64,000 nt of DNA from Deltaproteobacteria bacterium (GCA_033764095.1 JANRJF010000255.1:20154-84153); one strand, 5' to 3'. Positions 2-14,934 are shown, numbered from the stretch's first letter. Numbers and translations are program-made. Notes: a model not told the origin generated them from the sequence alone.

Positions 2-2020
2 ACCCACCTCAGCATCCTTATTTCAGCCGCCGAGCGTGCACTCCAGATGTTCGCATATGAAGATGCGGTACGTATGTACAGACAAGCGCTTGACTTCCTC
101 CCTCGCACGCCGGTCAACCAAAGGGAACGCTGCCAACTCCTCCTTTCACTCGGCGAAGCAGAGCGGCTTTCCGGGCGGGGTGGCGAGGCGCGTGAGGCGT
201 TTCGCGCCGCCGCCACGATAGCCAGATTATGCTCCGACATCGAACCATTCGCACAGGCCGCGCTCGGGCTGAGCGGGTTTCGCGCGTCAAACCCAGTCGA
301 CGTCGAGGCTATCAGCCTGATTGAGGAAGCACTTGAAAGAGCCGACCAACTCACTCTTGAGCTGCGCCACGAACTCCTCTGTGCGAGAATTGTTGCCCTG
401 CACTTCGCCCCCCACCTAACGGACATGAACAGGGACTGCGACGATGCGCTCTTTTTGGCCGACCAACTGAGGAACAATCGATCTCTCGCCCTTGCCTCGT
501 ATGCCAGACTCCTCACGGTCTTCGCCACAGTCCCCGCCGAAGAGATTAACAACCTTGCAGAACAAACTGCCGCCCTCGCGGAAACCTCGGGAGAGACCCG
601 CATCTACTTTGCTGCATTAACGTTCAGATATGGCGCACTGATCCGCCTGGGTCGGCTACCCGAATGCGATCGGATTCTTCACCAACTCATCCTCGCGACG
701 CAACGAGCCCCGTTTGCCCGACATCGCTGGCAACTCGCGCTGTTCGAAGCAGGCCGACGTCTAGCCTGGGATACACGGGAAAACATCAGGCTCTATATTG
801 AGCGAGCATTTGCCATCGGCGCCGACCTCGAACCTCTTACGGCCAGCCAACATGAAATCGCTCAAAAGGTTGTCCTAGAGTACTTGACGGGAAACCTGTC
901 GAACAACAGCGCCCTTCTTTTCGAAGCGGTGCAGACCCACCCTGACTCCGCAATCGCGCGTGCCGCTTGGGCGTTGTCGCTGTCTGACCCAGACAACCCG
1001 GCTGACGCTCAGGACGCGCTTTCATGGTTTTGCCCTGCGCGGATCGACTCGATTCCGGGCGCCTTCGCATCGCTCACCTTGGCGTTTCTCGCCGAAGCGA
1101 GTTTTCTTGCCGGGGATCGAACACTCGCCGTGCTTGTACACACGAGACTTGAAGCTTGGAGTGACGAACTAATTACACTGGGATTCGGAGCGGGCATAGT
1201 CGGTGCGGCGGGCTTCTATCTGGGACTCCTAGCTTGGCTTCAAAATGATCGCGCGCACGCGCTAGAGCTGCTAGAAGCCGCAGCAGAACTTGAACTCCGC
1301 GTCGGAGCACGACACTCATGGAGACGCACCCGGGCCGCCCTCTCCGCACTGAGGAATGGGCAGCGGACCTTCTCGATCCCCCGAGAAGATACCAACGATT
1401 TTGGCCGAGCCCCGAACCTCGGTCTCTCCGGCGGCGCTCCTCCTAGTGCACCACATCGGTTGCCGAATGTCTTCCGGAAGGAAGTCGGCGTCTGGACGAT
1501 TTGCTTCAACGGTCAGACTTCATACGTCCGCGATCAACTCGGCTTGGAGTATATTCGCCTGCTTTTGCGTGCCCCCGAGAAGGATATCCATGCGATTGAG
1601 CTAGTTCAGTCAGTCAGCCGCTCACCAGCGGAGACCCATCGCTTTCCAATTCACCAGACGGGCATCGAGCAAACAGACCGCGAGGCGCTGAACCAATATC
1701 GTCAGCGGCTGGCAGAGCTTTCCGCAGACATCGAGTCCGCGGACATCGACAACGATACCGGCCGAGCGGAACGCCTACGCGCGGAGCAGGAGTTGCTCTT
1801 GGAGGAGATTTCGCGGTCAAGGAACTATAAAAATCATATCCGCCGAGCGGGATCCGATGCCGAGCGGGCTCGCGTCGCCGTTAGAAATCGCATCACCAGC
1901 GCTTTGAAGAGCATAGGATCCGCTGACGCAAAGGCATCACGCCACCTGCAGAACGCGATTCGGACTGGCCTCTTCTGCTCGTACCGCCCAGAAGATTCCT
2001 GCAGGTGGGAACTCGACTGA
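2..2020 (+). CDS. TPR-repeat regulatory protein (STAND/MalT-like helical region), 5'-partial at window edge
   Basis: Reading frame is open from the window start through the ATG at 47 (no upstream in-frame stop). Helical TPR-like repeats (YRQALDFL, LGEAERLSG, several Ala/Leu-rich repeats). No recognisable HTH. Lower-GC codon usage. Confidence 0.45.
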   Translation, partial: THLSILISAAERALQMFAYEDAVRMYRQALDFLPRTPVNQRERCQLLLSLGEAERLSGRGGEAREAFRAAATIARLCSDIEPFAQAALGLSGFRASNPVDVEAISLIEEALERADQLTLELRHELLCARIVALHFAPHLTDMNRDCDDALFLADQLRNNRSLALASYARLLTVFATVPAEEINNLAEQTAALAETSGETRIYFAALTFRYGALIRLGRLPECDRILHQLILATQRAPFARHRWQLALFEAGRRLAWDTRENIRLYIERAFAIGADLEPLTASQHEIAQKVVLEYLTGNLSNNSALLFEAVQTHPDSAIARAAWALSLSDPDNPADAQDALSWFCPARIDSIPGAFASLTLAFLAEASFLAGDRTLAVLVHTRLEAWSDELITLGFGAGIVGAAGFYLGLLAWLQNDRAHALELLEAAAELELRVGARHSWRRTRAALSALRNGQRTFSIPREDTNDFGRAPNLGLSGGAPPSAPHRLPNVFRKEVGVWTICFNGQTSYVRDQLGLEYIRLLLRAPEKDIHAIELVQSVSRSPAETHRFPIHQTGIEQTDREALNQYRQRLAELSADIESADIDNDTGRAERLRAEQELLLEEISRSRNYKNHIRRAGSDAERARVAVRNRITSALKSIGSADAKASRHLQNAIRTGLFCSYRPEDSCRWELD

Positions 2021-2102
2021 CCACGAACTTCCCCATGAGTGGCACTCGTAGGCGCAGCCGTGCGATTAGTTCAGATATGGCGCGTTCGAGAAGTAAGACA
2101 CG

Positions 2103-3245
2103 TCACACCACACGCGACTGCCCGTTAATCACCGGCATATCCAAGCTTCCCCGCCCAAGCGCCTTATATGTCAAACCGGTTCTCGGATCAACTAACGTCG
2201 TAGCGTCGCTATGGAGCTTCGGTCGAGTATAAATTAAACGCAGTGCCTCAACGTGGCGCAATGATAAGTATCGGTCACCGTAAAGCCTGCGAATTGCCTT
2301 GCGGACGATAGGAGCATTTATGGCGCTCATCGTGGGAAAGATATGATGTTCGACGTGATATCCAAATTGGAGATGGATTGATTCGATAAAAGCAGGCGCT
2401 CGCACGGACACTGTATTGACAAGCGGATCGTTGGCAGATGTCAATGGGGTTAAGTAGTGGTTTGTGGCGATGTAGGACATTACAAGGGTATTTGCTGCTA
2501 GGGCGGGGACCACGACCAAGTAGGCGAAGTGTACAGGACCGAGGCACAGAAGCAGCAAGAGCCAAATACAAATCATGCTTCCCGTTTCGCAACAGACTCG
2601 CCGGAGAGAAATGCGCTTGTAGAACCCCCTTCGCATACTTTGCTTCAACAATACGACCCAAGCAACAACGGCGAAATGCGTGGGGAGGTAAAACCAGCTG
2701 GCAGTAGTCCCGGAGCCGGGCGCGATGGACTCCATAACCTTCAGGTAAGGGGTGCGCTCCCATAGATGAAGCGTACCGAAGTGATCGGTATCACCCATTA
2801 CATGACCCGTGTATGCGTGGTGGGTTTGATTATGCCACGCAACCCAGAACGTCGGAGACGTACAATATGGCAGCAGGCCAATGTATCCGACGATATTTTC
2901 GACGAGTCGGCTGCCCACCACGGCGTGATGCATCGTCTCATGGGCAAGAAACGTTATGCAGCCCCAACTGTGTCCCGCCAAAAGGCCGAACGGAACGGCC
3001 AACCACCAAGGCAGGTTGAGATACAATACGAGAACCGCCAGTGTGACAATGACCGTAAGATGTACCGCAAGCCAGGCCAACCGCACGGGGCGCCGTTGAA
3101 AAATCTCAGGAGGCAACTCTGCTCGGAGCTGCCGCGCGTATTCGTGCATTGTGGTAAGGCGCGCGCTTGAACCAGCAACATCCCTGCTGCCCGCATCAGC
3201 TTGCATTGGGGAGACGTCCATTTGACCGGATATAGATAGAACCAA
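2103..3245 (-). CDS. membrane-bound fatty acid desaturase family protein
   Basis: Three histidine boxes typical of integral-membrane desaturases (HETMHH, HNQTHH, HVEHH) plus several hydrophobic helices. The annotated start at 3245 is TTG; internal ATGs at ~3221 and ~3206 are possible true starts. Confidence 0.8.
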   Translation of the reverse strand: MVLSISGQMDVSPMQADAGSRDVAGSSARLTTMHEYARQLRAELPPEIFQRRPVRLAWLAVHLTVIVTLAVLVLYLNLPWWLAVPFGLLAGHSWGCITFLAHETMHHAVVGSRLVENIVGYIGLLPYCTSPTFWVAWHNQTHHAYTGHVMGDTDHFGTLHLWERTPYLKVMESIAPGSGTTASWFYLPTHFAVVAWVVLLKQSMRRGFYKRISLRRVCCETGSMICIWLLLLLCLGPVHFAYLVVVPALAANTLVMSYIATNHYLTPLTSANDPLVNTVSVRAPAFIESIHLQFGYHVEHHIFPTMSAINAPIVRKAIRRLYGDRYLSLRHVEALRLIYTRPKLHSDATTLVDPRTGLTYKALGRGSLDMPVINGQSRVV

Positions 3246-4515
3246 GCAAAAGACAGGAATTCACGCCGCCGTAGCCGTATCCGGTAACCAGTACGTTTTT
3301 CACGGATCGAGCCGTTGGCACGACCGGGAGGTTCGCCGTCAGATCACCCACTGCCGCCTCCCGAAGGTTTGTATTGGGCGGAACAATCTGGGTCGAAATG
3401 GCCAATGAGCCGGCGGCAACCTGAAAGGCCCCTGAAGCCCCAAATGGATGCCCAAGGACCCCTTTAATTGAGCTAATTGCTGGCGCTGACCCTGCCCCGC
3501 GCAGAGCGATCCTGAGAACCGCGCTCTCCTTGTCATCGAATGTCGGCGAAGAGTTTGCGTGGCTGCAGACGTAATCGATGTCTTTGGCCGATAAGCCGTA
3601 CCTCGACAGTAGTCGGAAGATTCCCTGCGCGGCCACATCGCCAGTCTGATCGATACGGTAGAGGCCCTTGGCATCGCACGAAGACTCACCCCCCAGAACC
3701 TCCGCCAACGGGGCGCCGGCCCGCTCAGCAGCTGCTGCGGCTTCCTCAAGCACGACAAAGCAGGCCCCTTCACTTAGCACGATTCCGGAATGCCTGCGGT
3801 CGAATGGACAAGACGAAAGACTTGGATCCTCGTTGAGCGTCGAGAGTTCCTGGGTTCTGCAAAGCGAGGCGAAGACGCTGGGACTCAATGGGGCCTCGGC
3901 GCCACCCGCGACGCAGAGGTCGGCTACACCCGCCTGAATCAGCAAGCTTCCTAGGCGGATTGCCTCCAATGCAGACGGGCACCCGTTCGCGATGGTCAAT
4001 TGCGGTCCTTGAGCGCCCAGTAGAGCTGCCACCTCTGCCCCCGGCCCGTGGCTAGCCGCTCCACTTACGATAAACGGATTGATCCGCCTGGCACCCCGCT
4101 CCAACATGAGGCCCACCTGAGCCTCAGCATCGGCCCAACCAGCCACCGCAGTCCCTACTACGACTGCTCTCCTGGACGGCGCATACGCACCTTCCTGCAA
4201 CCGCGCGTCCTCTGTCGCCAGCGCGGCCGCGGCGAGGGCGAACTGCGACACCCGGGGCGCGGTTCGAATCGTTCTGGAAGTCAGCAGAGGGAAAAACTCG
4301 TCGTCGGCGACCTGCCCGGCCACTCGGCACGACAAGGAGGAGGCGTCGAATCGGTCAATCGCGCGGATCGCAGACTTTCCCGAGAGAAGCGCCTTCCACA
4401 ACGCGCCCCTGCCTACGCCCACAGGCGCAACCGAGCCGATTCCGGTGATCACCGTCCGCCGTGCTGGGCTCGAAGGCCCCGGGGGAATCGCGCTTTCCAC
4501 AGGGAAACGCTTCAT
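3196..4515 (-). CDS. beta-ketoacyl-[acyl-carrier-protein] synthase (KAS I/II family)
   Basis: N-terminus RRTVITGIGSVAPVG is the classic KAS start. Full-length ~439 aa thiolase-fold condensing enzyme. Start lies 14 nt after the ACP stop. Confidence 0.85.
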   Translation of the reverse strand: MKRFPVESAIPPGPSSPARRTVITGIGSVAPVGVGRGALWKALLSGKSAIRAIDRFDASSLSCRVAGQVADDEFFPLLTSRTIRTAPRVSQFALAAAALATEDARLQEGAYAPSRRAVVVGTAVAGWADAEAQVGLMLERGARRINPFIVSGAASHGPGAEVAALLGAQGPQLTIANGCPSALEAIRLGSLLIQAGVADLCVAGGAEAPLSPSVFASLCRTQELSTLNEDPSLSSCPFDRRHSGIVLSEGACFVVLEEAAAAAERAGAPLAEVLGGESSCDAKGLYRIDQTGDVAAQGIFRLLSRYGLSAKDIDYVCSHANSSPTFDDKESAVLRIALRGAGSAPAISSIKGVLGHPFGASGAFQVAAGSLAISTQIVPPNTNLREAAVGDLTANLPVVPTARSVKNVLVTGYGYGGVNSCLLLGSIYIRSNGRLPNAS

Positions 4516-4528
4516 CTCGGATAGGCTG

Positions 4529-4783
4529 CTACCTTACGCCGGCAGCACACCCATGTATGTATTCGATTATGAGGCCGAGTTCGTTAAGCTCAATTATACG
4601 AATAGGATCTAGCTCGACATCGAACCTCTCTTCGAGCGCAACCTGCATCTCGACGAAAGCAACCGACTCCATGACGACATCCCTCTCTATCGTGGCGCGC
4701 TCATCGAGGGAAAGAGTTGGATCCTGCCCAAACTCCTTCAGCAACTGAAAAACGTACTCGGCAACCTCCTCACGACTCGGCAT
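4529..4783 (-). CDS. acyl carrier protein
   Basis: 84-aa product from an internal ATG (MPSREEVAEYVFQLLKEF...ERDVVMESVAFVEMQVALEERFDVELD). Four-helix ACP pattern with a phosphopantetheine-type Ser in the ESV motif. The upstream part of the 138-aa ORF is probably non-coding. Confidence 0.7.
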   Translation of the reverse strand: MPSREEVAEYVFQLLKEFGQDPTLSLDERATIERDVVMESVAFVEMQVALEERFDVELDPIRIIELNELGLIIEYIHGCAAGVR

Positions 4784-5060
4784 CTGAAACCTCGCGACGC
4801 CGGCCGCGAAAGCTCCGAGTCGTATCCCAAGAGTGCTGCACCGGGCGCCCTCCAGCGCCTGGGAGACCACCTCCCCAGAATGATCGCGCGTCTGGCAATG
4901 GCGGTCGCTCCAACTTTCGCGAGGTAGGTCCAGGATTTGGAACAACTGGCATCATTGACGGCTGAAGTCACGCTGAGTTACGCTTCGGGCCGGCGAGAAG
5001 TCAAGGCGATCTCCTTGGCTCCGCGAAGAACGACGCCAGCAGAGGCAACGAGACGCAATC

Positions 5061-5675
5061 GTGCGCAGCCGGACCATGCCGATAAGCACAAGAGATCTGC
5101 TCAAGGAGTTTTCGTTCAAGGTCGCCGTAGGACCTGACATTGGACCCGCCGTGAACCTCTTTCGACAGGTATATGAGGCTGACGTTGGCTTTGTGCCATC
5201 CGATGGAATGGACGATAGCGCTACCTACCTCATCGCCAAGTGCACCGATGGAGACGTCGCTGCTACATTGCGATTCCTCGGACCAGAGCATCGTCCCTTC
5301 GTGTTCGAAAAATCTTGTGAGGTGGCCCTTCCAGACGGCAGCAGGCCTGCCCTATTGAGCCGCTTTAGCGTGTCGCCGCTATTTCGCGCGGCTCCCCGCT
5401 CGATTGCGCTGCACTTTGGGATGTTGAAGCTTGCAGTCGAATTTGCGCTCCCCTTGGGCGTTACCGACCTTCTTCAATACACCCAGCCGCATCTCATCAA
5501 TTTCTACCGTGCTGCGTTCTTCGAAGCCACGGGTGTGACCTTTGAGTTGCCCCCCTTGCAGAGCAAGATGCATGTTCTTCGCCTCAACTTGCGCACGCTC
5601 GATGAGCGCTGCCGAGCCTCTAACTCCCGCGGCGCAGAGTTCCTTCGTTCTCCTGATCGAATTGTGACCCCGTAA
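5061..5675 (+). CDS. LuxI/FeeM-like N-acyltransferase (autoinducer synthase / N-acyl amino acid synthase family, GNAT fold)
   Basis: LuxI-family landmarks: R..VY....GF (equivalent to R24-F28-W34), acidic DGMDDSATYLI, RFLGP, LSRFSV (the E/L-SRFAV motif), GVTDLL...FYRAAGF. Size ~200 aa. Stop is 3 nt before the histidine kinase start. Confidence 0.6.
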   Translation: MRSRTMPISTRDLLKEFSFKVAVGPDIGPAVNLFRQVYEADVGFVPSDGMDDSATYLIAKCTDGDVAATLRFLGPEHRPFVFEKSCEVALPDGSRPALLSRFSVSPLFRAAPRSIALHFGMLKLAVEFALPLGVTDLLQYTQPHLINFYRAAFFEATGVTFELPPLQSKMHVLRLNLRTLDERCRASNSRGAEFLRSPDRIVTP

Positions 5676-5678
5676 GTA

Positions 5679-7772
5679 ATGCTCCCTTCCTGGTTCGTAC
5701 CCCTAGTGGCAGCCCTCGCAACGGCCGCGCTGGGCGTATTTGTCGCAGTGAGGGGACCGCGAGGCGAGCTGCGCGCCGCGTTTCTGTTTTTCGCCGCCAC
5801 CCTCGTCTTCTGGCACTGCTTTTATCTCGTTCTTTATTTGATACCCGACTACCAGACTGCCTTCGAGGGCGCTCGAATTCTTAGAGTCGGATCCTTCTAC
5901 ATGGTCGCCGCGGTCCTGCATCTTGCAGTTTCGGCGCGAGCAAGACCAAGGCGTCTTTGGCGGTGGATTGTCATTGGCAATTACGCTCTCGCCACCTCCT
6001 TCGTTGTCGCCAATGTATTTGACGTTTGGGTGAAGGAGCTTAGGCGAACCGACGCCGGATACGTCACAGTCGGCACGCGCTGGTACAGCATTCTGAGCCT
6101 CTACGCGTTGCTGAACTTTCTCGTCGCAATATCACTTTCGGTTCGTGACTACTGGATCACGAGGGACCCGCGGGTCAGACAGCAGGTAGGCTTTTGGCTC
6201 GCGGGCATGCTGGTCGCGCTCCCCCTCGGACTCACTAATTTCCTACCTGTTTACGGGGTCGAGTTTCCCCCGCTAGGCAATCTTGGAGCGGCCCTTTGGA
6301 CCGGAATCGTGGCGTACGCGATCGTCCGCCACAGATTGATGGACATCGACGTATTTGTCACCAAGGGGCTCGCTTACGCAGCAGTTACTCTTGTCTTGGT
6401 GACGCCAGCAATCGCAGTGTCAGTTATCCTACAGTGGTGGGCGTTCCGTGCGGTCGACTATGAATTTACGGCGGCGCTCGCGGTCCTGTTCTTGTCGATT
6501 GCCGTTTGTTTTCCGCTGGTTGTGTTCAGTGCCGAAGAGCGCCTGCAACGATCGCTGTTTCGCGCCCGCACCCAGACGCGTCGAGATCTTGCCGCCTTCT
6601 CCCGCAGCATGGTCAAAATTCTCGATAGACAAAGACTGATGGCGGAGATCTGCAACCGGCTGCACGATCTTCTCGACGTCGAACGGGTTGCAATTTACCT
6701 CTTGGATTCTTCAGGTACGCGGTTGGAACTTCGGAAGAGCCAAGGAACCCATGCAGAAACGACGGAGTTTGGGAGTCAACATCCGTTTGTTCGGTGGCTC
6801 GGCCGCCGATCCGAACCGTCGCTTCGCGAGGATGCGGAGGGGCTGGATACGGTGCAGGCAGTCTTTGTCGAGCAAGGGTGGGAGGTCTGCTTACCGATGC
6901 ATAGCGGACGTCAAATGCTCGGATTCCTAGCACTTGGGGCTCGGCATGGGAGGCAAGCGTTCGCGGGGGGCGATCTTGAGCAGTTGGCGGCTATCTCTGA
7001 CGAGGCGGGGGTCGCGTTTGAGAACGCTCGCCTGTACGAAGAGGTCCGGCGGTCCCGTGCAATCATTGATCGCACGAGCAGGCTCTCCTCGCTGGGAACC
7101 TTGGCCGCCGGGATTGCCCACGAGATCCGGAATCCTCTTGTATCGATCCATACGTTCTTCCAAATGGCGCCGACTCGACTCGGCGACGAAGAGTTCATGA
7201 CTTCATTCCTAGGACTGGCGGGAGAGGAGGTGCAGAGAATCAGTAGTTTGGTTGACGAGCTACTGATCTTTGGGAAATCGACGACGACGAATCCGACCGA
7301 GGTGCAGCCAAACGAGGTCGTCGATCGCGGCCTGGCCTTGCTAGCGCCACAGGCGCGTCAGAAGAATGTGACGCTCGATCGAAGTCTCTCAGAATCCCTC
7401 CCCCCCGTTCTGGCCGACGGCGATCAGTTGCTTCAGGTGCTCGTCAACCTGCTCCTGAATGCGATCCAAGCTACTTTGAGCGGCGGTCGCGTCACCGTCG
7501 AAACGCGCCTGATCACGGATGAGACGGGAGAATTCTGCCAGATCGAAATAGTCGACACGGGAGTCGGAATTCCCGCATCGGTTCGTGAAGCGATCTTCGA
7601 TCCCTTCTTTACAACGAAGGACCGTGGAACCGGTCTGGGCTTGTCCGTCGCGCATCGTATCGTCGCCGAATTTGGTGGGTTCCTCTCGGTCGAAAGCGCC
7701 GAAGGCCAAGGAAGCCGATTCAGCGTCAACCTACCTGCGTGCCGTAATCTGGAGTTTCCAGCTGGCGCTTAG
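5679..7772 (+). CDS. sensor histidine kinase: N-terminal ~7TM integral membrane domain, GAF domain, HisKA and HATPase_c (PrsK-like architecture)
   Basis: About seven hydrophobic helices in the first ~300 aa. GAF-like region (VAIYLLD...GFLALG). H-box LGTLAAGIAHEIRNPL. N/G1/G2 boxes (LLLNAIQA, DTGVGIP, GTGLGLSV). No receiver domain. Confidence 0.85.
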   Translation: MLPSWFVPLVAALATAALGVFVAVRGPRGELRAAFLFFAATLVFWHCFYLVLYLIPDYQTAFEGARILRVGSFYMVAAVLHLAVSARARPRRLWRWIVIGNYALATSFVVANVFDVWVKELRRTDAGYVTVGTRWYSILSLYALLNFLVAISLSVRDYWITRDPRVRQQVGFWLAGMLVALPLGLTNFLPVYGVEFPPLGNLGAALWTGIVAYAIVRHRLMDIDVFVTKGLAYAAVTLVLVTPAIAVSVILQWWAFRAVDYEFTAALAVLFLSIAVCFPLVVFSAEERLQRSLFRARTQTRRDLAAFSRSMVKILDRQRLMAEICNRLHDLLDVERVAIYLLDSSGTRLELRKSQGTHAETTEFGSQHPFVRWLGRRSEPSLREDAEGLDTVQAVFVEQGWEVCLPMHSGRQMLGFLALGARHGRQAFAGGDLEQLAAISDEAGVAFENARLYEEVRRSRAIIDRTSRLSSLGTLAAGIAHEIRNPLVSIHTFFQMAPTRLGDEEFMTSFLGLAGEEVQRISSLVDELLIFGKSTTTNPTEVQPNEVVDRGLALLAPQARQKNVTLDRSLSESLPPVLADGDQLLQVLVNLLLNAIQATLSGGRVTVETRLITDETGEFCQIEIVDTGVGIPASVREAIFDPFFTTKDRGTGLGLSVAHRIVAEFGGFLSVESAEGQGSRFSVNLPACRNLEFPAGA

Positions 7773-8148
7773 AGCGGTGGTTAATCCGAACCGCGAGTTG
7801 GACGGGTTCGGCAAACAACGGGCGGCAAGCGGGATACCGGCGAGCGCACGCTTTGGGATGCCGTGCATCCGGGGCGGCGCTGGAGCGAGTTCCAGCCGAT
7901 TCGCGGCCACGGTGCTCGCCAATTGGCGACGCGGCCAAGACGTGCCGTCGCCGCCGCAAGTCGCCAGGACCAAGCAGCGTTCCAAACGTCAGATATTGAA
8001 CGATGGCATCATTCCTGACGACATCTTCGAAGAGCCGGCCGACGACGCCGACAACGACTCAAACCCGGATACTTAGCCTCAAACCCGGACAGTCCCTCGC
8101 CCCTAGGTCGATTGATTCCGGGCGCGGGGCCTGCGAGAATAGGGTTCT

Positions 8149-8693: not shown

Positions 8694-9380
8694 GTGTCGA
8701 TCGTCGCGATCGTCGTCGCCGGTGGCCCCGGCAGTCGCCTCGGAGCCGACGTCCCGAAGGGGTTCGTCCGCCTCGCCGGCGAGGCGCTGATGGCGCGCTC
8801 GCTGCGCGCCATGCTGGCGTCGCCGGTGGTGAGCCGCGCGGTGGTGGTGGTGCCGCCCGGCCACACCGACGAAGCCAAGGCACTGCTGGAGTCGGCGCGC
8901 GACGCGCGCCCGCTGCTGGTGATCGAGGGCGGCGTGGAACGGCAGGACTCGGTGCGCAACGGCCTGGCCGCGGCCGGCGATGCCGACGTGGTCGCCATCC
9001 ACGACGCCGCCCGGCCGTTCGTCAGCCGGGCGGCGGTCGACGACGCCATCGCGACGGCTCGCCAATACGGCGCGGCCATCGTCGCCACGCCGGCCACCGA
9101 CACGATCAAGCTGGTGCATCCGGACGGCTGGGTCGAGACGACCCCACCGCGCGACCGCCTGTGGCTGGCGCAGACCCCGCAGGTCTTTCGCGCCAACCTG
9201 CTGCGCCGCGCCCACGCGCGCGCGCCACACAGTCTCGCCACCGACGACGCGCTGCTGGTCGAGGCGCTCGGCGAGCGCGTCTACGTCGTGCGCGGCAACC
9301 CGGAGAACCGCAAGATCACGACGCCCGACGACCTGCGCTGGGCCGAGGCGCTGCTGGCGCGCGCGCCAGCCCCTCGTTGA
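8694..9380 (+). CDS. ispD: 2-C-methyl-D-erythritol 4-phosphate cytidylyltransferase
   Basis: GTG start. IVAIVVAGGPGSRLG nucleotide-binding motif and IspD-family sequence throughout. Confidence 0.9.
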   Translation: MSIVAIVVAGGPGSRLGADVPKGFVRLAGEALMARSLRAMLASPVVSRAVVVVPPGHTDEAKALLESARDARPLLVIEGGVERQDSVRNGLAAAGDADVVAIHDAARPFVSRAAVDDAIATARQYGAAIVATPATDTIKLVHPDGWVETTPPRDRLWLAQTPQVFRANLLRRAHARAPHSLATDDALLVEALGERVYVVRGNPENRKITTPDDLRWAEALLARAPAPR

Positions 9381-10167
9381 GGCTGCCCGAGCGGAATCCC
9401 TGCAGGTCGACCGTCACGTAGCGGAAGCCGAGCGCGCGCAGGGCGGCCACCACCGCCTCGCGCACCGGCGGCTCGGCCAGACGGGCCACGTCCGCCGCCG
9501 GCACCTCGATGCGCGCGATCGGGTCGTGGACGCGCACGCGGCACTCGCGGAATCCGAGCCGATGCAGCGCCGCCTCGGCGCCGGCGACGCGGCGCAGCCC
9601 GTCGAGGGTGATGCGCGTGCCGTACGGGAAGCGCGACGACAGGCACGGGCTCGACGGCTTGTCCGCCGTCGGCAGACCGAGCTGGCGGCTGAGCCGCCGG
9701 ATCTCGTCCTTCGACAACCCGACCTCGGCGAGCGGATGGCGCACCGCGTGCTCCTCCGCCGCCTTCAACCCCGGCCGGTAGTCGCCGAGGTCATCGAGGT
9801 TGACGCCGTCGACGACCACCGCGATGCCGCGCCGATCCGCCTCGGCGCGGCAGATGGTATAGAGACTGCCCTTGCAGAAGAAGCAGCGGTTCACCGGATT
9901 GTCGGCATAGCCGGGAATGTGGAGCTCGTTGGCGTCGACGACGACGTGCTCGACGCCGAGCGCCTCCGCCAGTACGCGCGCCATCGTCTCGTCGGCCTCC
10001 GGCGCGGTGGGCGAACGCGTCGTCAGCGCGACCGCCGCGGCGCCGAGCTCGGCGTGCGCGACCTGCAACAGGAAGCTCGAGTCGACCCCACCGGAGAAGG
10101 CGACCACCAGCGGCCCGAGCTCGCGCAGCAGGGCGCGCAACGCGCTCAGCTTCGCATCGGCATCCAT
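9316..10167 (-). CDS. PP-loop ATP pyrophosphatase, LarE-like (TIGR00268 family) sulfur transferase
   Basis: PP-loop SGGVDSS, conserved CFFCK, ~283 aa. Start codon abuts the cysK stop (TGAATG). The 3' end overlaps the ispD 3' end by ~65 nt (convergent). Confidence 0.75.
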   Translation of the reverse strand: MDADAKLSALRALLRELGPLVVAFSGGVDSSFLLQVAHAELGAAAVALTTRSPTAPEADETMARVLAEALGVEHVVVDANELHIPGYADNPVNRCFFCKGSLYTICRAEADRRGIAVVVDGVNLDDLGDYRPGLKAAEEHAVRHPLAEVGLSKDEIRRLSRQLGLPTADKPSSPCLSSRFPYGTRITLDGLRRVAGAEAALHRLGFRECRVRVHDPIARIEVPAADVARLAEPPVREAVVAALRALGFRYVTVDLQGFRSGSLNEGLARAPAAPRPSAGRRAS

Positions 10168-11100
<933 letters not shown>

Positions 11101-12118: not shown

Positions 12119-13813
12119 ATGTACGATCTGATCATTCGCGACGCCGATCTCGTCGACGGCAGCGGCGCCGCCCGGCAACGCGGCGACCTGGCGATCGCCG
12201 ACGGCCGCATCGCCGCGATCGGCGACGTGCAAGGCGCGGCGCACCGCGAGATCCACGCCGCCGGGCGCGTCGCCACCCCCGGGTTCATCGACGTGCACAC
12301 GCACTACGACTGCCAGGTGTCGTGGGATCCGGCGCTGACGCCGTCGTCCTGGCACGGCGTCACCAGCGTGGTGATGGGCAACTGCGGCTTCTCGATCGCG
12401 CCCTGCCGGCGCGCGCATCGCGATCTGCTGATGGAGATGCTGCTCTACGTCGAGGGCATGCCGACCGAAGCGCTGCGCGCCGGCATCCGCTGGGAGTGGG
12501 AGTGCTTCCCGGAGTATCTGGACGCCGTCGAACGGGCGCGCCCGGCGGTGAACACCGCCGCCTTCGTCGGCCACTCGGCGGTGCGCTACTTCGTCATGGG
12601 CGACGCCGCCGCCGAACGCGCCGCCAACGCCGACGAGCTGGCGCGCATGCAGGACGTCGTGCGCGAGGCGCTGCGCGCCGGCGCGATCGGCTTCTCGACG
12701 TCCGAGTCGCCGACCCACTTCTTCGGCAGCGGCGTACCGGTGCCGAGCCGCGTCGCGCCGCGCGACGAGCTGCTGGCGCTGAGCCGCGTGCTCGGCGAGC
12801 TCGGCCGCGGCCTGGTCGAGGTGGCGCCGCTGCACCTGCTCGGCGGCACCGACGACAAGCTCGCCGACCAGGCGTTCTACGCCGAGGTCGCGCGCGCCTG
12901 CGGCCGACCGGTCACCTGGGCGCCGCTGCTCGCCAATCCGTTCGATCCATCCGGCGCGCTGCAGATCATCGAACAGGCGGCGGCGGAACAACGCGCCGGC
13001 GCCCAGGTGTATCCGCAGGTCGGCTGCCGGCCGCTGGAAGTGCGCATCTCGTTCGCCAGCGCCGGCATCGCGGTGGCCAACAACCCGTTCTGGAGCCCGA
13101 TCGTCGCCCAGCCGCTGGCCGAGCGGGTCGCGCAGCTGCGCAGCCGCGCGTTCCGCGACGAGCTGCGCGCCATGTCGTCGGGCGGCGGCTTCGTCGCCGC
13201 GCTGGCGCCGAGCTGGCATCACATCCTGCTGCGCCTGTCCGGCAACCCGGCGCACGCGCCGCTGATCGATCGCAGCATTGCCGAGCTGGTCGCCGAGCGC
13301 GGCGGCGACGAGGTGGACACGCTGCTCGATCTCGCCCTCGCCGCCGACCTCGACTGCCAGTTCGGCGTGCCGATCATGAACACCGACGAAGCCGTGGTCG
13401 GCCAGCTGCTGCGCCATCCGGCCGCGCTGGTGGCGCTCTCCGATGCCGGAGCGCACGTCGACACGCTCGCCGACCAGGGGTTCACCACGACGCTGCTCGC
13501 CCACTGGGCGCGCGATCGCCGCGCGCTCACGCTCGAGGCCGCGGTCCGCCTGGTCACCGCGGTGCCCAGCACCCTCTACGGCCTCGGCCAGCGCGGGCAA
13601 TTGCGCGTCGGCTGGGCCGCCGACGTCGTGCTGTTCGACGAAGCGCGCCTCGGCCTGCAGCGCACCGAATTGGTGCGCGACCTCCCCGGCGGCGCCGCGC
13701 GTCTCATTCAGCGTCCGCTCGGCATCACGCACGTGCTGGTCAACGGCGCCGTGCTGGTCGACGATGGCGCCCAGACCGACGCGCGCAGCGGCCGCGTGCT
13801 GCGCGGCGCCTGA
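12119..13813 (+). CDS. N-acyl-D-amino-acid deacylase / D-aminoacylase family amidohydrolase
   Basis: [10 protein letters not shown] metal-binding start, MGNCGFS and the D-aminoacylase pattern through the C-terminal beta-domain. 564 aa. Confidence 0.85.
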
Positions 13814-13848
13814 CAGGGATCGCCTTGAAAACCCGACAGGTCGCAACT

Positions 13849-14934
13849 ATGAAGAAGCCCGCGTTGCCCATGATTCGTCCGGTCGAGTGGCGCAATGGCG
13901 CCGTCGTCCTGCTCGATCAGCGTCTGCTGCCGTTGCAGGAAGTCTACCGCGTCTATCGCGACCACCGCGACGTGGCACGCGCGATCAAGGACATGGTGGT
14001 GCGCGGCGCGCCCGCCATCGGCGTCGCGGCGGCCATGGGCATCGCGCTCGGCATGGCGCAGGCGAGCGACAGCGATCAGGCGCGCGCCTTCGATCGTATC
14101 GCGCGGCGCTTCGCGGCGACCCGGCCGACGGCGGTGAACCTCTTCTGGGCGATCGAGCGCATGCGGCGCGCCCTGGCGCGCGCGCGCGGCCGCAGCCCCG
14201 AAGTGGTGCGCGAGATCCTGCGCCAGGAGGCGGTGGCGATCTACCACGAGGACATCGCCAGCAACCGCGCGCTCGGCGCGCACGGCGCCGGCCTGCTGAA
14301 GCCGCGCACGACGGTGCTGACGCACTGCAACGCCGGTGCGCTGGCCACCGCCGGCTACGGCACCGCGCTGGGCGTCATCCGCGCCGCGCAGGAGGCAGGC
14401 AAGCAGATTGCCGTGATCGCCGCCGAAACACGGCCGTTCCTGCAGGGCGCGCGTCTGACCGCCTGGGAGCTGAAGAAGGATCGCGTGCCGGTGACGCTGA
14501 TCACCGACAACATGGTCGGCCACGTCATGAAGCGCGGCACGGTCGGCGCGGTGATCGTCGGCGCCGACCGCGTCGCCGCCAACGGCGACGTCGCCAACAA
14601 GATCGGCACCTACGGCGTGGCGGTGATCGCCGCGCGGCACCGGATTCCGTTCTATGTCGCGGCGCCGACCTCGACGGTCGATCTCGCCTGCGCGGACGGC
14701 GACGCGATCCCGATCGAGGAGCGCGCGGTGCGCGAGGTGACGCATCTCGGCGACGCGCAGATTGCGCCGAGCGGCATCAAGGTGATGAACCCGGCGTTCG
14801 ACGTCACGCCGCACACGCTGGTGACGGCGATCATCACCGAGCGCGGCGTCGCGCGCGCGCCCTACACGCGCTCGCTGGCGCGGATGCTGGGCGGCGAGAC
14901 GCGCGACGTCCGCCGGCGCGCCAGCCGCTCGTAA
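13849..14934 (+). CDS. mtnA: S-methyl-5-thioribose-1-phosphate isomerase
   Basis: ATG at 13849 inside a long chimeric six-frame ORF. eIF-2B/MtnA family sequence ([39 protein letters not shown]). Confidence 0.85.

Follow-up and report, generated by a model that had tools for sequence, protein, structure and literature searches.

Within a 64,000-nt stretch of a Deltaproteobacteria bacterium genome (GCA_033764095.1, JANRJF010000255.1:20154-84153; referred to here, at its full length, as the window), three minus-strand open reading frames (ORFs) lie head to tail and encode an acyl carrier protein (ACP), a beta-ketoacyl-ACP synthase (KAS) of the KAS I/II type, and an integral-membrane fatty acid desaturase (Table 1). 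Facing them across a divergent spacer are the genes of a FeeM-type GNAT N-acyltransferase (hereafter, the synthase) and of a sensor histidine kinase (HK) with a seven-transmembrane (7TM) region and a GAF domain. A preliminary description of this locus had placed the first three genes in one operon and proposed that they provide the synthase with a private acyl-ACP pool, a proposal that we followed up computationally. The ORFs and their domain matches agreed with the single operon and with the gene boundaries first given. The gap between the ACP stop codon (4529-4531) and the KAS start codon (ATG 4515) measured 13 nt, one base off the 14 nt initially reported, and the desaturase gene, as had been claimed, overlaps the KAS stop codon (3196-3198), by 11 nt when translated from ATG 3206. 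An alternative start, TTG 3245, would extend this overlap to 50 nt; ATG 3206, which was chosen by aligning the N-terminus with those of 20 homologues, is most likely the start codon. The divergent region, put earlier at ~280 bp, spans 277 bp up to GTG 5061 or 292 bp up to ATG 5076, depending on where the synthase begins, and a GAGG Shine-Dalgarno sequence lies 7 nt 5' of the ACP start codon (ATG 4783). The weak hairpin at the end of the desaturase gene is suggestive only, since matches of this terminator type fell below shuffle expectation in the pattern scan. A sigma-70-like hexamer pair (TTGAGC-16-CATAAT, 4566-4593, minus strand) was also noticed within the ACP gene, just 5' of the KAS gene (1 match, with 2.4 expected by chance).

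Table 1. Features of the locus, in window coordinates; the last row gives positions in the related loci named there.
Feature	Position	Strand	Remarks
Dedicated acyl carrier protein (ACP)	4529-4783	-	84 aa; first gene of the operon
KAS I/II-type beta-ketoacyl-ACP synthase	3196-4515	-	439 aa; begins 13 nt past the ACP stop
Integral-membrane fatty acid desaturase, three His boxes	2103-3206	-	367 aa from ATG 3206; longest ORF from TTG 3245
FeeM-type GNAT N-acyltransferase	5076-5675	+	199 aa from ATG 5076; 204 aa from GTG 5061
7TM-GAF-HisKA-HATPase sensor histidine kinase	5679-7772	+	697 aa; 3 nt past the synthase stop
Divergent control region, ACP operon versus synthase-kinase operon	4784-5075		277-292 bp
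Conserved promoter-like element, TTGACG-N38-AGTCAAG	4955-5005		
Weak hairpin resembling a terminator, at the desaturase gene end	2099-2116	-	pattern scan; 5-bp stem
Low-GC ORF convergent with the desaturase gene	47-2020	+	657 aa; GC3 0.62
Compositional boundary between foreign-looking cluster and host genes CarD, IspD	7773-8148		GC3 step
Sigma-54 activator of related loci	L001 1143-3518; L005 6464-8824; L012 8379-10655; L014 14761-17118; L024 7232-9565; L026 12843-15227; L036 637-3012		

The ACP falls within the carrier protein superfamily (PF00550, 23.9 bits against a gathering threshold of 20.8) and scored 18.3 bits against the AcpP equivalog model TIGR00517, whose cut-off is 70.45. The serine of its M-E-S-V-A-F-V-E motif aligns with Ser36 of E. 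coli AcpP, and this phosphopantetheine-site serine is invariant among five aligned cluster ACPs and AcpP; M-E-S-V stands where AcpP has D-S-L, and the protein is 27% identical to E. coli AcpP and 37-51% identical to the ACPs of related clusters (tblastn). The KAS carries both domains of an elongating condensing enzyme of the KAS I/II type (PF00109 and PF02801), aligns end to end with FabF structures, and retains the Cys-His-His triad and the active-site Lys when compared with T. thermophilus FabF (1j3n). Against the FabF equivalog model TIGR03150 it reached 302.3 bits (cut-off 493.75), and it likewise remained below the cut-offs of all other KAS equivalog models in NCBIfam. An NCBI protein from a MAG labeled 'Deltaproteobacteria bacterium' is identical to it; otherwise, its nearest relative found lies in a related metagenomic locus, L032 (62% identity), followed by KAS genes at the same position in Binatia at 50-55%; the next relatives were also ~50-55% identical, those named by organism being mostly Candidatus Binatia.

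Because both proteins score under the NCBIfam AcpP and FabF equivalog cut-offs, the ACP and KAS are not of the housekeeping kind, and their description as dedicated proteins was supported. That the locus instead represents ordinary fatty acid synthesis, i.e., housekeeping acpP and fabF genes next to a lipid desaturase, is extremely unlikely. Although ACP and FabF are the best-scoring named families, and no second ACP, KAS or acyl-CoA-dehydrogenase-like (ACAD-family) gene was found in the window, the two scores lie far below the cut-offs (18 against 70 bits and 302 against 494), the ACP shows low identity to AcpP and has no DSL motif, and the codon usage of both genes is foreign to the host. 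Moreover, fab genes (fabD, fabG, fabH or plsX) were not found near the operon, while its orthologues (~40-50% identity for the ACP and 50-62% for the KAS) keep the divergent position and always accompany a FeeM-like/kinase gene pair.

For the facing synthase, the label 'LuxI-like' used in the preliminary description had to be replaced. The LuxI family PF00765 gave no match in the window synthase and matched only one of ten relatives (E = 0.0017); the window protein did match PF21926, the FeeM/N-acyl amino acid synthase family, at a borderline 27.0 bits (gathering threshold 27). Within the synthase family, 8 of 10 members matched PF21926 (best E = 1.3e-9) and 9 of 10 matched PF13444, and no NCBIfam model, thus none for an exosortase-associated acyltransferase, matched the synthase at E <= 0.01. 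The family is small, with 123 representatives among 1.84 billion proteins in an exhaustive HMMER search. An 83-member profile run against the sequences of the PDB retrieved GNATs, the acyl-homoserine lactone (AHL) synthase TofI (E = 1.8e-4) and FeeM (E = 0.02). An AlphaFold (AF2) model built on the 83-member alignment (pLDDT 95.6) had FeeM (2g0b) as its best fold match in the PDB (E = 2.6e-9, TM 0.65-0.73), followed by the carrier-protein-dependent GNAT SbzI and then by the AHL synthases TofI, RpaI, LasI, MesI, BjaI and EsaI. Judged by the modeled fold, 'FeeM-like N-acyltransferase' is the accurate label. FeeM is an acyl-ACP-using enzyme, and it can reasonably be inferred that the synthase, too, takes an acyl-ACP donor; its predicted fold and the adjacent ACP gene suggest that it would acylate the alpha-amine of an amino acid with a long chain taken from acyl-ACP. 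The kinase encoded next to it comprises PF16927, PF13492, PF00512 and PF02518 domains; in all related loci the synthase gene is followed by one for a kinase to which it is 43-54% identical (tblastn).

The related loci were collected by contig look-up and by synthase-seeded pattern scans of genome and metagenome collections, and were all mapped by tblastn, yielding ~21 distinct loci (handles with the prefix L). The ACP gene is divergent from the synthase gene in 20 of the 21, almost all of which come from Binatia metagenome-assembled genomes (MAGs) or metagenomes, and on account of this recurrence the divergent arrangement is not a matter of chance. In the exception, L022, a transposase-domain (DUF772) ORF (758-1585) occupies the place where the ACP-KAS arm is expected, and the synthase-kinase pair is left alone. 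Wherever a contig was long enough, the ACP operon included a cluster-type KAS and the synthase was followed by a 7TM-GAF kinase, the conserved core thus running KAS, (ACAD), ACP in one direction and FeeM-like synthase, kinase in the other. We defined this class here as the Binatia FeeM-HK/ACP-KAS cluster, i.e., an ACP-led operon with a KAS, a divergent FeeM-like gene followed by a 7TM-GAF kinase gene, and a TTGACT...AGTCAAG element in the spacer, all of which the window contains. Our literature searches (Binatia with N-acyl lipids, FeeM with histidine kinases, and HisKA_7TM) retrieved no account of such a Binatia cluster. Taken together, the analyses establish the identities of the genes, their catalytic motifs, their tight coupling and their conserved synteny, along with the modeled fold of the synthase.

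Around this core, the related loci differed in their accessory genes. An ACAD-family gene follows the ACP gene in 13 loci, and lies between the ACP and KAS genes where the contig continues; it is absent from the window and from L014, L016/17 and L027. Its NCBIfam matches included PigA, RedW and MbtN, i.e., carrier-protein-dependent dehydrogenases, all under cut-off. In the window variant, which has no ACAD, the desaturase gene is coupled to the KAS gene instead. An MMPL/HAE3 (HpnN-like) lipid exporter gene adjoins the KAS gene in L005, L013, L014, L026 and L027, and many relatives are flanked by a gene for a sigma-54 activator of 785-791 aa that has no receiver domain and begins with a 7TM and GAF module, a paralogue of the corresponding module in the cluster kinase (27-28% identity over ~470 aa). 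No sigma-54 activator of this kind was found in the 64-kb window, where it may lie upstream of the window start. In L014 a B12-binding radical-SAM enzyme (12887-14476) is encoded between the kinase and the activator, at the place where L005 and L036 carry a desaturase gene, and in L027 a patatin-like lipase gene (9619-10914) lies 3' of the kinase gene; this pattern suggests that the position next to the kinase may be a variable tailoring slot. A rearranged form of the acyl arm was seen in L031, where the C-terminal half of a cluster-type KAS (2-1045) is encoded on the strand opposite to the ACP.

The low-GC ORF that converges on the desaturase gene had no Pfam or NCBIfam match and aligned (26% identity over 723 aa, E = 1e-42, tblastn) with the C-terminal 720 aa of a 1138-aa AAA16/TPR protein; the N-terminal ATPase part is either missing here or beyond the window start. 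This AAA16/TPR protein likewise abuts the KAS in L004/L011. Among the loci collected, L013 (DATKMS010000270.1) is labeled Candidatus Margulisiibacteriota, yet its cluster is of the Binatia type, it shows the CarD-IspD synteny, and against the query proteins it gave tblastn identities and scores equal to those of the metagenome contig L024; its label is probably a binning or labeling error.

The desaturase itself matched PF00487 (98 bits, E = 1e-27) and contains the three histidine boxes of membrane desaturases (HETMHH, HNQTHH and HVEHH), with hydrophobic cores at about residues 49-68 and 212-239 of the 367-aa form (crude hydropathy scan). DesB, the Delta(10) desaturase of Bacillus, is one of the membrane-bound fatty acid desaturases, and its model (NF052549) gave the best NCBIfam score, 219.7 bits; this is below the cut-off of 500, and neither regiospecificity nor the form of the substrate can therefore be assigned to the desaturase from the model. 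The closest relative, P0121 of L032, is 66% identical and is encoded 82 nt downstream of a KAS gene; with the corresponding KAS proteins 62% identical, the KAS-desaturase pair is conserved within the sub-lineage of the window. A second group of cluster desaturases (P0130 and P0132, 54-55% identical) is encoded between the sigma-54 activator and the kinase in L005/6, L036 and L037, loci that keep the ACAD. In a neighbor-joining tree of 118 homologues, the window desaturase and P0121 were sisters (bootstrap 74) inside a clade (bootstrap 96) that includes the stand-alone desaturases of L007, L008, L033 and L035, and the P0130 group formed a separate clade (bootstrap 100). The tree would fit either two independent recruitments of a desaturase to the cluster or one ancient association followed by losses. 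We also considered a strict rule by which the desaturase replaces the ACAD and rejected it: L005 and L036 have both genes and L014 and L027 neither, leaving only a tendency in the window lineage. The desaturase is thus best described, going by its distribution, as a lineage-specific accessory tailoring gene and not as part of the core.

Since the desaturase gene is repeatedly embedded in the cluster, its product appears to act on the lipid of the cluster, although the embedding does not indicate on which intermediate. The alternative, that it is an ordinary phospholipid desaturase, either merely adjacent to the cluster or controlled by its membrane sensors in a homeoviscous circuit like DesK/Des, and does not act on an ACP-bound or N-acyl chain, is unlikely in our estimation. 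This alternative would explain why members of the subfamily, at 58-65% identity, also occur as stand-alone genes with unrelated neighbors, why the best NCBIfam model is that of DesB, and why the gene of L005 and L036 lies between two 7TM sensors, outside the ACP operon. It fits less well with the embedding of two phylogenetically separate lineages at two positions of the cluster, with the overlap between the window gene and the KAS stop codon, with a pairing kept in L032 at 62-66% identity, or with a desaturase gene that shares the foreign codon usage of the cluster (GC content at third codon positions, GC3, of 0.59). As for the stand-alone homologues, those in L007 (7884-10056) and L035 (3396-6709), 62-63% identical to the window protein and from two high-GC genomes, were seen to share a synteny block in which the desaturase gene adjoins genes for an ABM monooxygenase and for a short protein of the exosortase family (PF09721).

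The divergent spacers could not be aligned outside a single element of 55-56 nt, TTGACT-N18-GAA(A/G)(A/G)TA-N~19-AGTCAAG, which occurs in 18 of 22 distinct spacers between ACP and FeeM-like genes, including that of the window (and, among others, those of L001, L004, L005, L010, L012-L014, L016, L018, L019, L026, L028-L031 and L036). The window form measures 51 nt, 5 nt shorter than in the relatives. Read towards the ACP operon, the element is a good sigma-70-type promoter, TTGACT-N18-TA(T/C)(C/T)TT, the window having TTGACT (5004-4999), N18 and TAACTC (4980-4975) on the minus strand; read towards the synthase, it is TTGACT-N18-GAAnnT. These features fit two overlapping, divergent sigma-70-type promoters with a common -10 region, possibly mutually exclusive, a resemblance that is a pattern and not proof. 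On this reading, transcripts would start near 4968 on the minus strand and near 4990 on the plus strand. Given the neighboring sigma-54 activator genes of the relatives, a sigma-54 promoter was also sought in the spacer: no good GG-N10-GC (-24/-12) site was found in the window and none consistently in the relatives, and a TGGCAC sequence 5' of the L005 desaturase gene was rejected for its wrong spacing. Similarly, the ~185-nt ACP operon leader gave no sign of a riboswitch or other leader RNA, and this idea was rejected (no Rfam family, fold z-score 0.02).

The six genes at 47-7772 have a GC3 of 0.59-0.66, compared to 0.88-0.94 in CarD, IspD and the two genes that follow, and overall GC is 0.58 in the cluster versus ~0.72. 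We examined whether the low-GC 8 kb could have been joined to a high-GC contig by faulty assembly or binning, which would render the genomic context meaningless. The source being a MAG and GC3 stepping abruptly from ~0.62 to ~0.90 within ~400 bp both speak for such a join; nevertheless, we hold it to be very improbable because the neighborhood is conserved in relatives: the cluster also lies near CarD-IspD in L005, L013, L026 and L027, although in the opposite orientation and with the MMPL gene in between. In addition, core genes have a GC3 somewhat below that of their flanks in most other loci, and the internal organization of the operon would be unaffected either way. Plasmid origin was rejected as well, there being no tblastn match to the synthase in PLSDB and no tRNA or integrase at the compositional boundary. 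The most economical reading of these sequence features would be that the cluster was acquired or replaced by horizontal transfer, at a CarD-IspD-proximal site that is conserved. Further into the host side, an Rfam ASdes small RNA match (8934-8998, minus strand) inside the IspD gene reached 23.8 bits against a gathering threshold of 40 (E = 0.07) and is most likely due to chance.

Considering the synteny and the predicted enzymology, we find it fairly likely that the ACP-KAS-desaturase operon is the acyl-chain arm of a conserved Binatota cluster that supplies the FeeM-type N-acyltransferase, and the cluster probably makes a tailored N-acyl lipid beside its own membrane sensor kinase. In line with the preliminary description, a private acyl pool feeding the synthase appears well supported by the conserved divergent position, by the recurrence of the desaturase, and by the FeeM fold. 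In the pathway that we propose, the 84-aa ACP would serve as a private carrier, converted to its holo form and loaded with malonate by host enzymes. The KAS would take a fatty acyl primer out of the general pool and condense it with malonyl-ACP, bringing the chain onto the private ACP and lengthening it by two carbons; host enzymes (reductases and a dehydratase) may then work on the 3-oxo group. The membrane di-iron desaturase would then add a double bond, its substrate being either the ACP thioester, as for JamB and the desaturases of polyyne pathways, or the completed amphiphile within the membrane; in most relatives the ACAD would give a 2-enoyl chain. Finally, the FeeM-like GNAT would pass the ACP-bound chain on to an amine (that of an amino acid being most likely), forming an unsaturated N-acyl lipid, which in relatives may be exported by the MMPL protein and which is a likely ligand of the co-transcribed 7TM-GAF kinase. 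Since most relatives have an ACAD and the window lineage a KAS-coupled desaturase, both the site and the type of unsaturation appear to vary between lineages. An unsaturated long-chain N-acyl signal had been called unusual at the outset; however, unsaturated N-acyl products are not particularly unusual, e.g., the stieleriacines (PMC7293339).

Several observations weigh against this pathway. A lone KAS gives 3-oxoacyl-ACP, and host reductases and a dehydratase would first have to recognize the private ACP for a mid-chain desaturase or an ACAD to act. No phosphopantetheinyl transferase, malonyl transferase or acyl-ACP ligase gene was found in the cluster. The desaturase family is not specific to the cluster, for the closest relatives, apart from that of L032, are encoded on their own among unrelated genes (L007, L008, L033 and L035; 58-65% identity). 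Moreover, the synthase barely attains the FeeM threshold of Pfam, and its sequence profile reaches FeeM in the PDB only at E = 0.02.

What the lipid is for may be read in two ways. Tentatively, and as a possibility rather than an expectation, the cluster could be an undescribed lipid cell-cell signaling system of the uncultured phylum Binatota: a FeeM-type synthase fed by an ACP and KAS, whose chain is varied by swappable enzymes (the ACAD, either desaturase lineage, or the B12-radical-SAM enzyme), with the product read by two paralogous 7TM-GAF receptors (the histidine kinase and the sigma-54 activator that lacks a receiver domain). In that case the window would hold a 'dialect' acquired by horizontal transfer and defined by its desaturase; were the product a signal, the synthases and receptors would form a new family, and the chain-tailoring genes would predict the dialect. 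Alternatively, the product could be an aminolipid with a structural role in the membrane or outer membrane (comparable to lyso-ornithine lipid or to N-acyl amino acid lipids), its chain tailored by the ACP, KAS and desaturase, exported by the MMPL protein and monitored, as part of the envelope, by the kinase, an explanation that we consider rather doubtful. It draws on the match of nine of the ten synthase family members to PF13444, the OlsB-type GNAT family, on the lipid exporter gene that abuts the KAS gene in five relatives, and on the patatin gene of L027; it also retains the private acyl supply, so that only the role of the product differs. No locus, however, has an OlsA-type O-acyltransferase, the synthase is always translationally coupled to a sensor kinase (with a 3-nt gap in the window), as in synthase-receptor pairs, and the family is small and patchy with tailoring genes that vary by lineage, which is more typical of signals and specialized metabolites than of bulk lipids. 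If the product is nonetheless a structural lipid, the cluster would still be a first handle on specialized lipid chemistry in Binatota.

By their domain matches, the ACP, KAS, desaturase and synthase fall only within broad known families (PP-binding, KAS I/II, FA_desaturase and the FeeM-fold GNATs). We compared the cluster with known systems one at a time. The analogy first drawn was to the fee cluster of soil environmental DNA, which encodes the N-acyl-tyrosine synthase FeeM and the ACP FeeL, and it is upheld by FeeM (2g0b) being the best structural match of the synthase. According to the title of Van Wagoner & Clardy 2006, as cited in PMC7293339, FeeM binds its ACP. The two systems have in common a FeeM-fold GNAT beside a dedicated small ACP; in contrast to the fee cluster, the Binatia cluster also encodes a KAS and a 7TM-GAF kinase as well as an ACAD or desaturase, its window synthase is ~15% identical to FeeM, and no other fee genes were seen in it. 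The mycobactin locus mbt-2, as Krithika et al. are said to have reported in 2006, encodes the N-acyltransferase MbtK, the ACP MbtL, the acyl-AMP ligase MbtM and the acyl-ACP dehydrogenase MbtN. It resembles the ACAD-containing form of the cluster in having a dedicated ACP, an acyl-ACP dehydrogenase of the ACAD family and a GNAT whose target for N-acylation is the side chain of an amino acid; unlike mbt-2, which loads by acyl-AMP ligase, the Binatia cluster would load by KAS, and the window has no ACAD. The ACADs of the relatives scored 111 bits against the MbtN model, with a cut-off of 700.

Similarly, in Nod factor synthesis the private ACP NodF and the KAS NodE make an unusual unsaturated chain, which the N-acyltransferase NodA puts on the amine of the signal molecule (PMC9048898). 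Here, too, a private ACP and a KAS would build a chain for N-acylation; however, NodA does not have the GNAT/FeeM fold, its acceptor is a chitooligosaccharide, the NodFE unsaturation stems from a skipped enoyl reduction and not from a desaturase or ACAD, and no sensor kinase lies alongside. A precedent for the desaturase is offered by JamB and the polyyne (cay/pgn) desaturases, membrane proteins of PF00487 that are encoded with a designated ACP and act on the ACP-bound chain (bioRxiv 10.1101/291195; PMC9828172). The likeness to JamA/JamB/JamC and the polyyne systems consists in a PF00487 desaturase encoded with an ACP, seen in the window at the level of genomic pairing, and the likeness to JamB is one of description; those systems differ in loading the ACP by an acyl-AMP/ACP ligase and in making alkynes.

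N-acyl amino acid synthases have also been linked to PEP-CTERM/exosortase systems with PrsK and PrsR (Craig, Cherry & Brady 2011, as summarized in PMC7293339). As far as that summary goes, the likeness lies in a GNAT of the N-acyl amino acid synthase type together with a multi-transmembrane GAF histidine kinase and a sigma-54 activator, and the PrsK (TIGR02916) and PrsR models were indeed the most architecture-consistent matches of the cluster kinase and of the activator of the relatives. The scores nonetheless fell short of the cut-offs (126 against 300 bits for the kinase and 332 against 502 for the activator), the Binatia activator has no receiver domain, and the cluster loci showed neither exosortase nor PEP-CTERM genes, which sets the Binatia cluster apart from these systems. 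Pairing of a lipid-signal synthase gene with a gene for a polytopic histidine kinase that senses a hydrophobic ligand in the membrane is known from LuxM/LuxN, AinS/AinR and CqsA/CqsS. The synthase gene is likewise adjacent to that of a membrane kinase in the Binatia cluster, where a signaling role may be inferred; LuxM/LuxN, AinS/AinR and CqsA/CqsS, however, belong to other protein families and are not known to have a dedicated ACP/KAS arm.

Viewed against these systems, the logic of a dedicated ACP and KAS for special N-acyl chains, known from few cases (Nod factors, mycobactin and fee), is met here in a compact, conserved cluster of an uncultured phylum, with the ACP, KAS, desaturase and synthase genes spanning only ~3.6 kb. 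In this cluster it is tied directly to a membrane sensor kinase and, in many cases, also to a paralogous membrane sensor fused to a sigma-54 activator.

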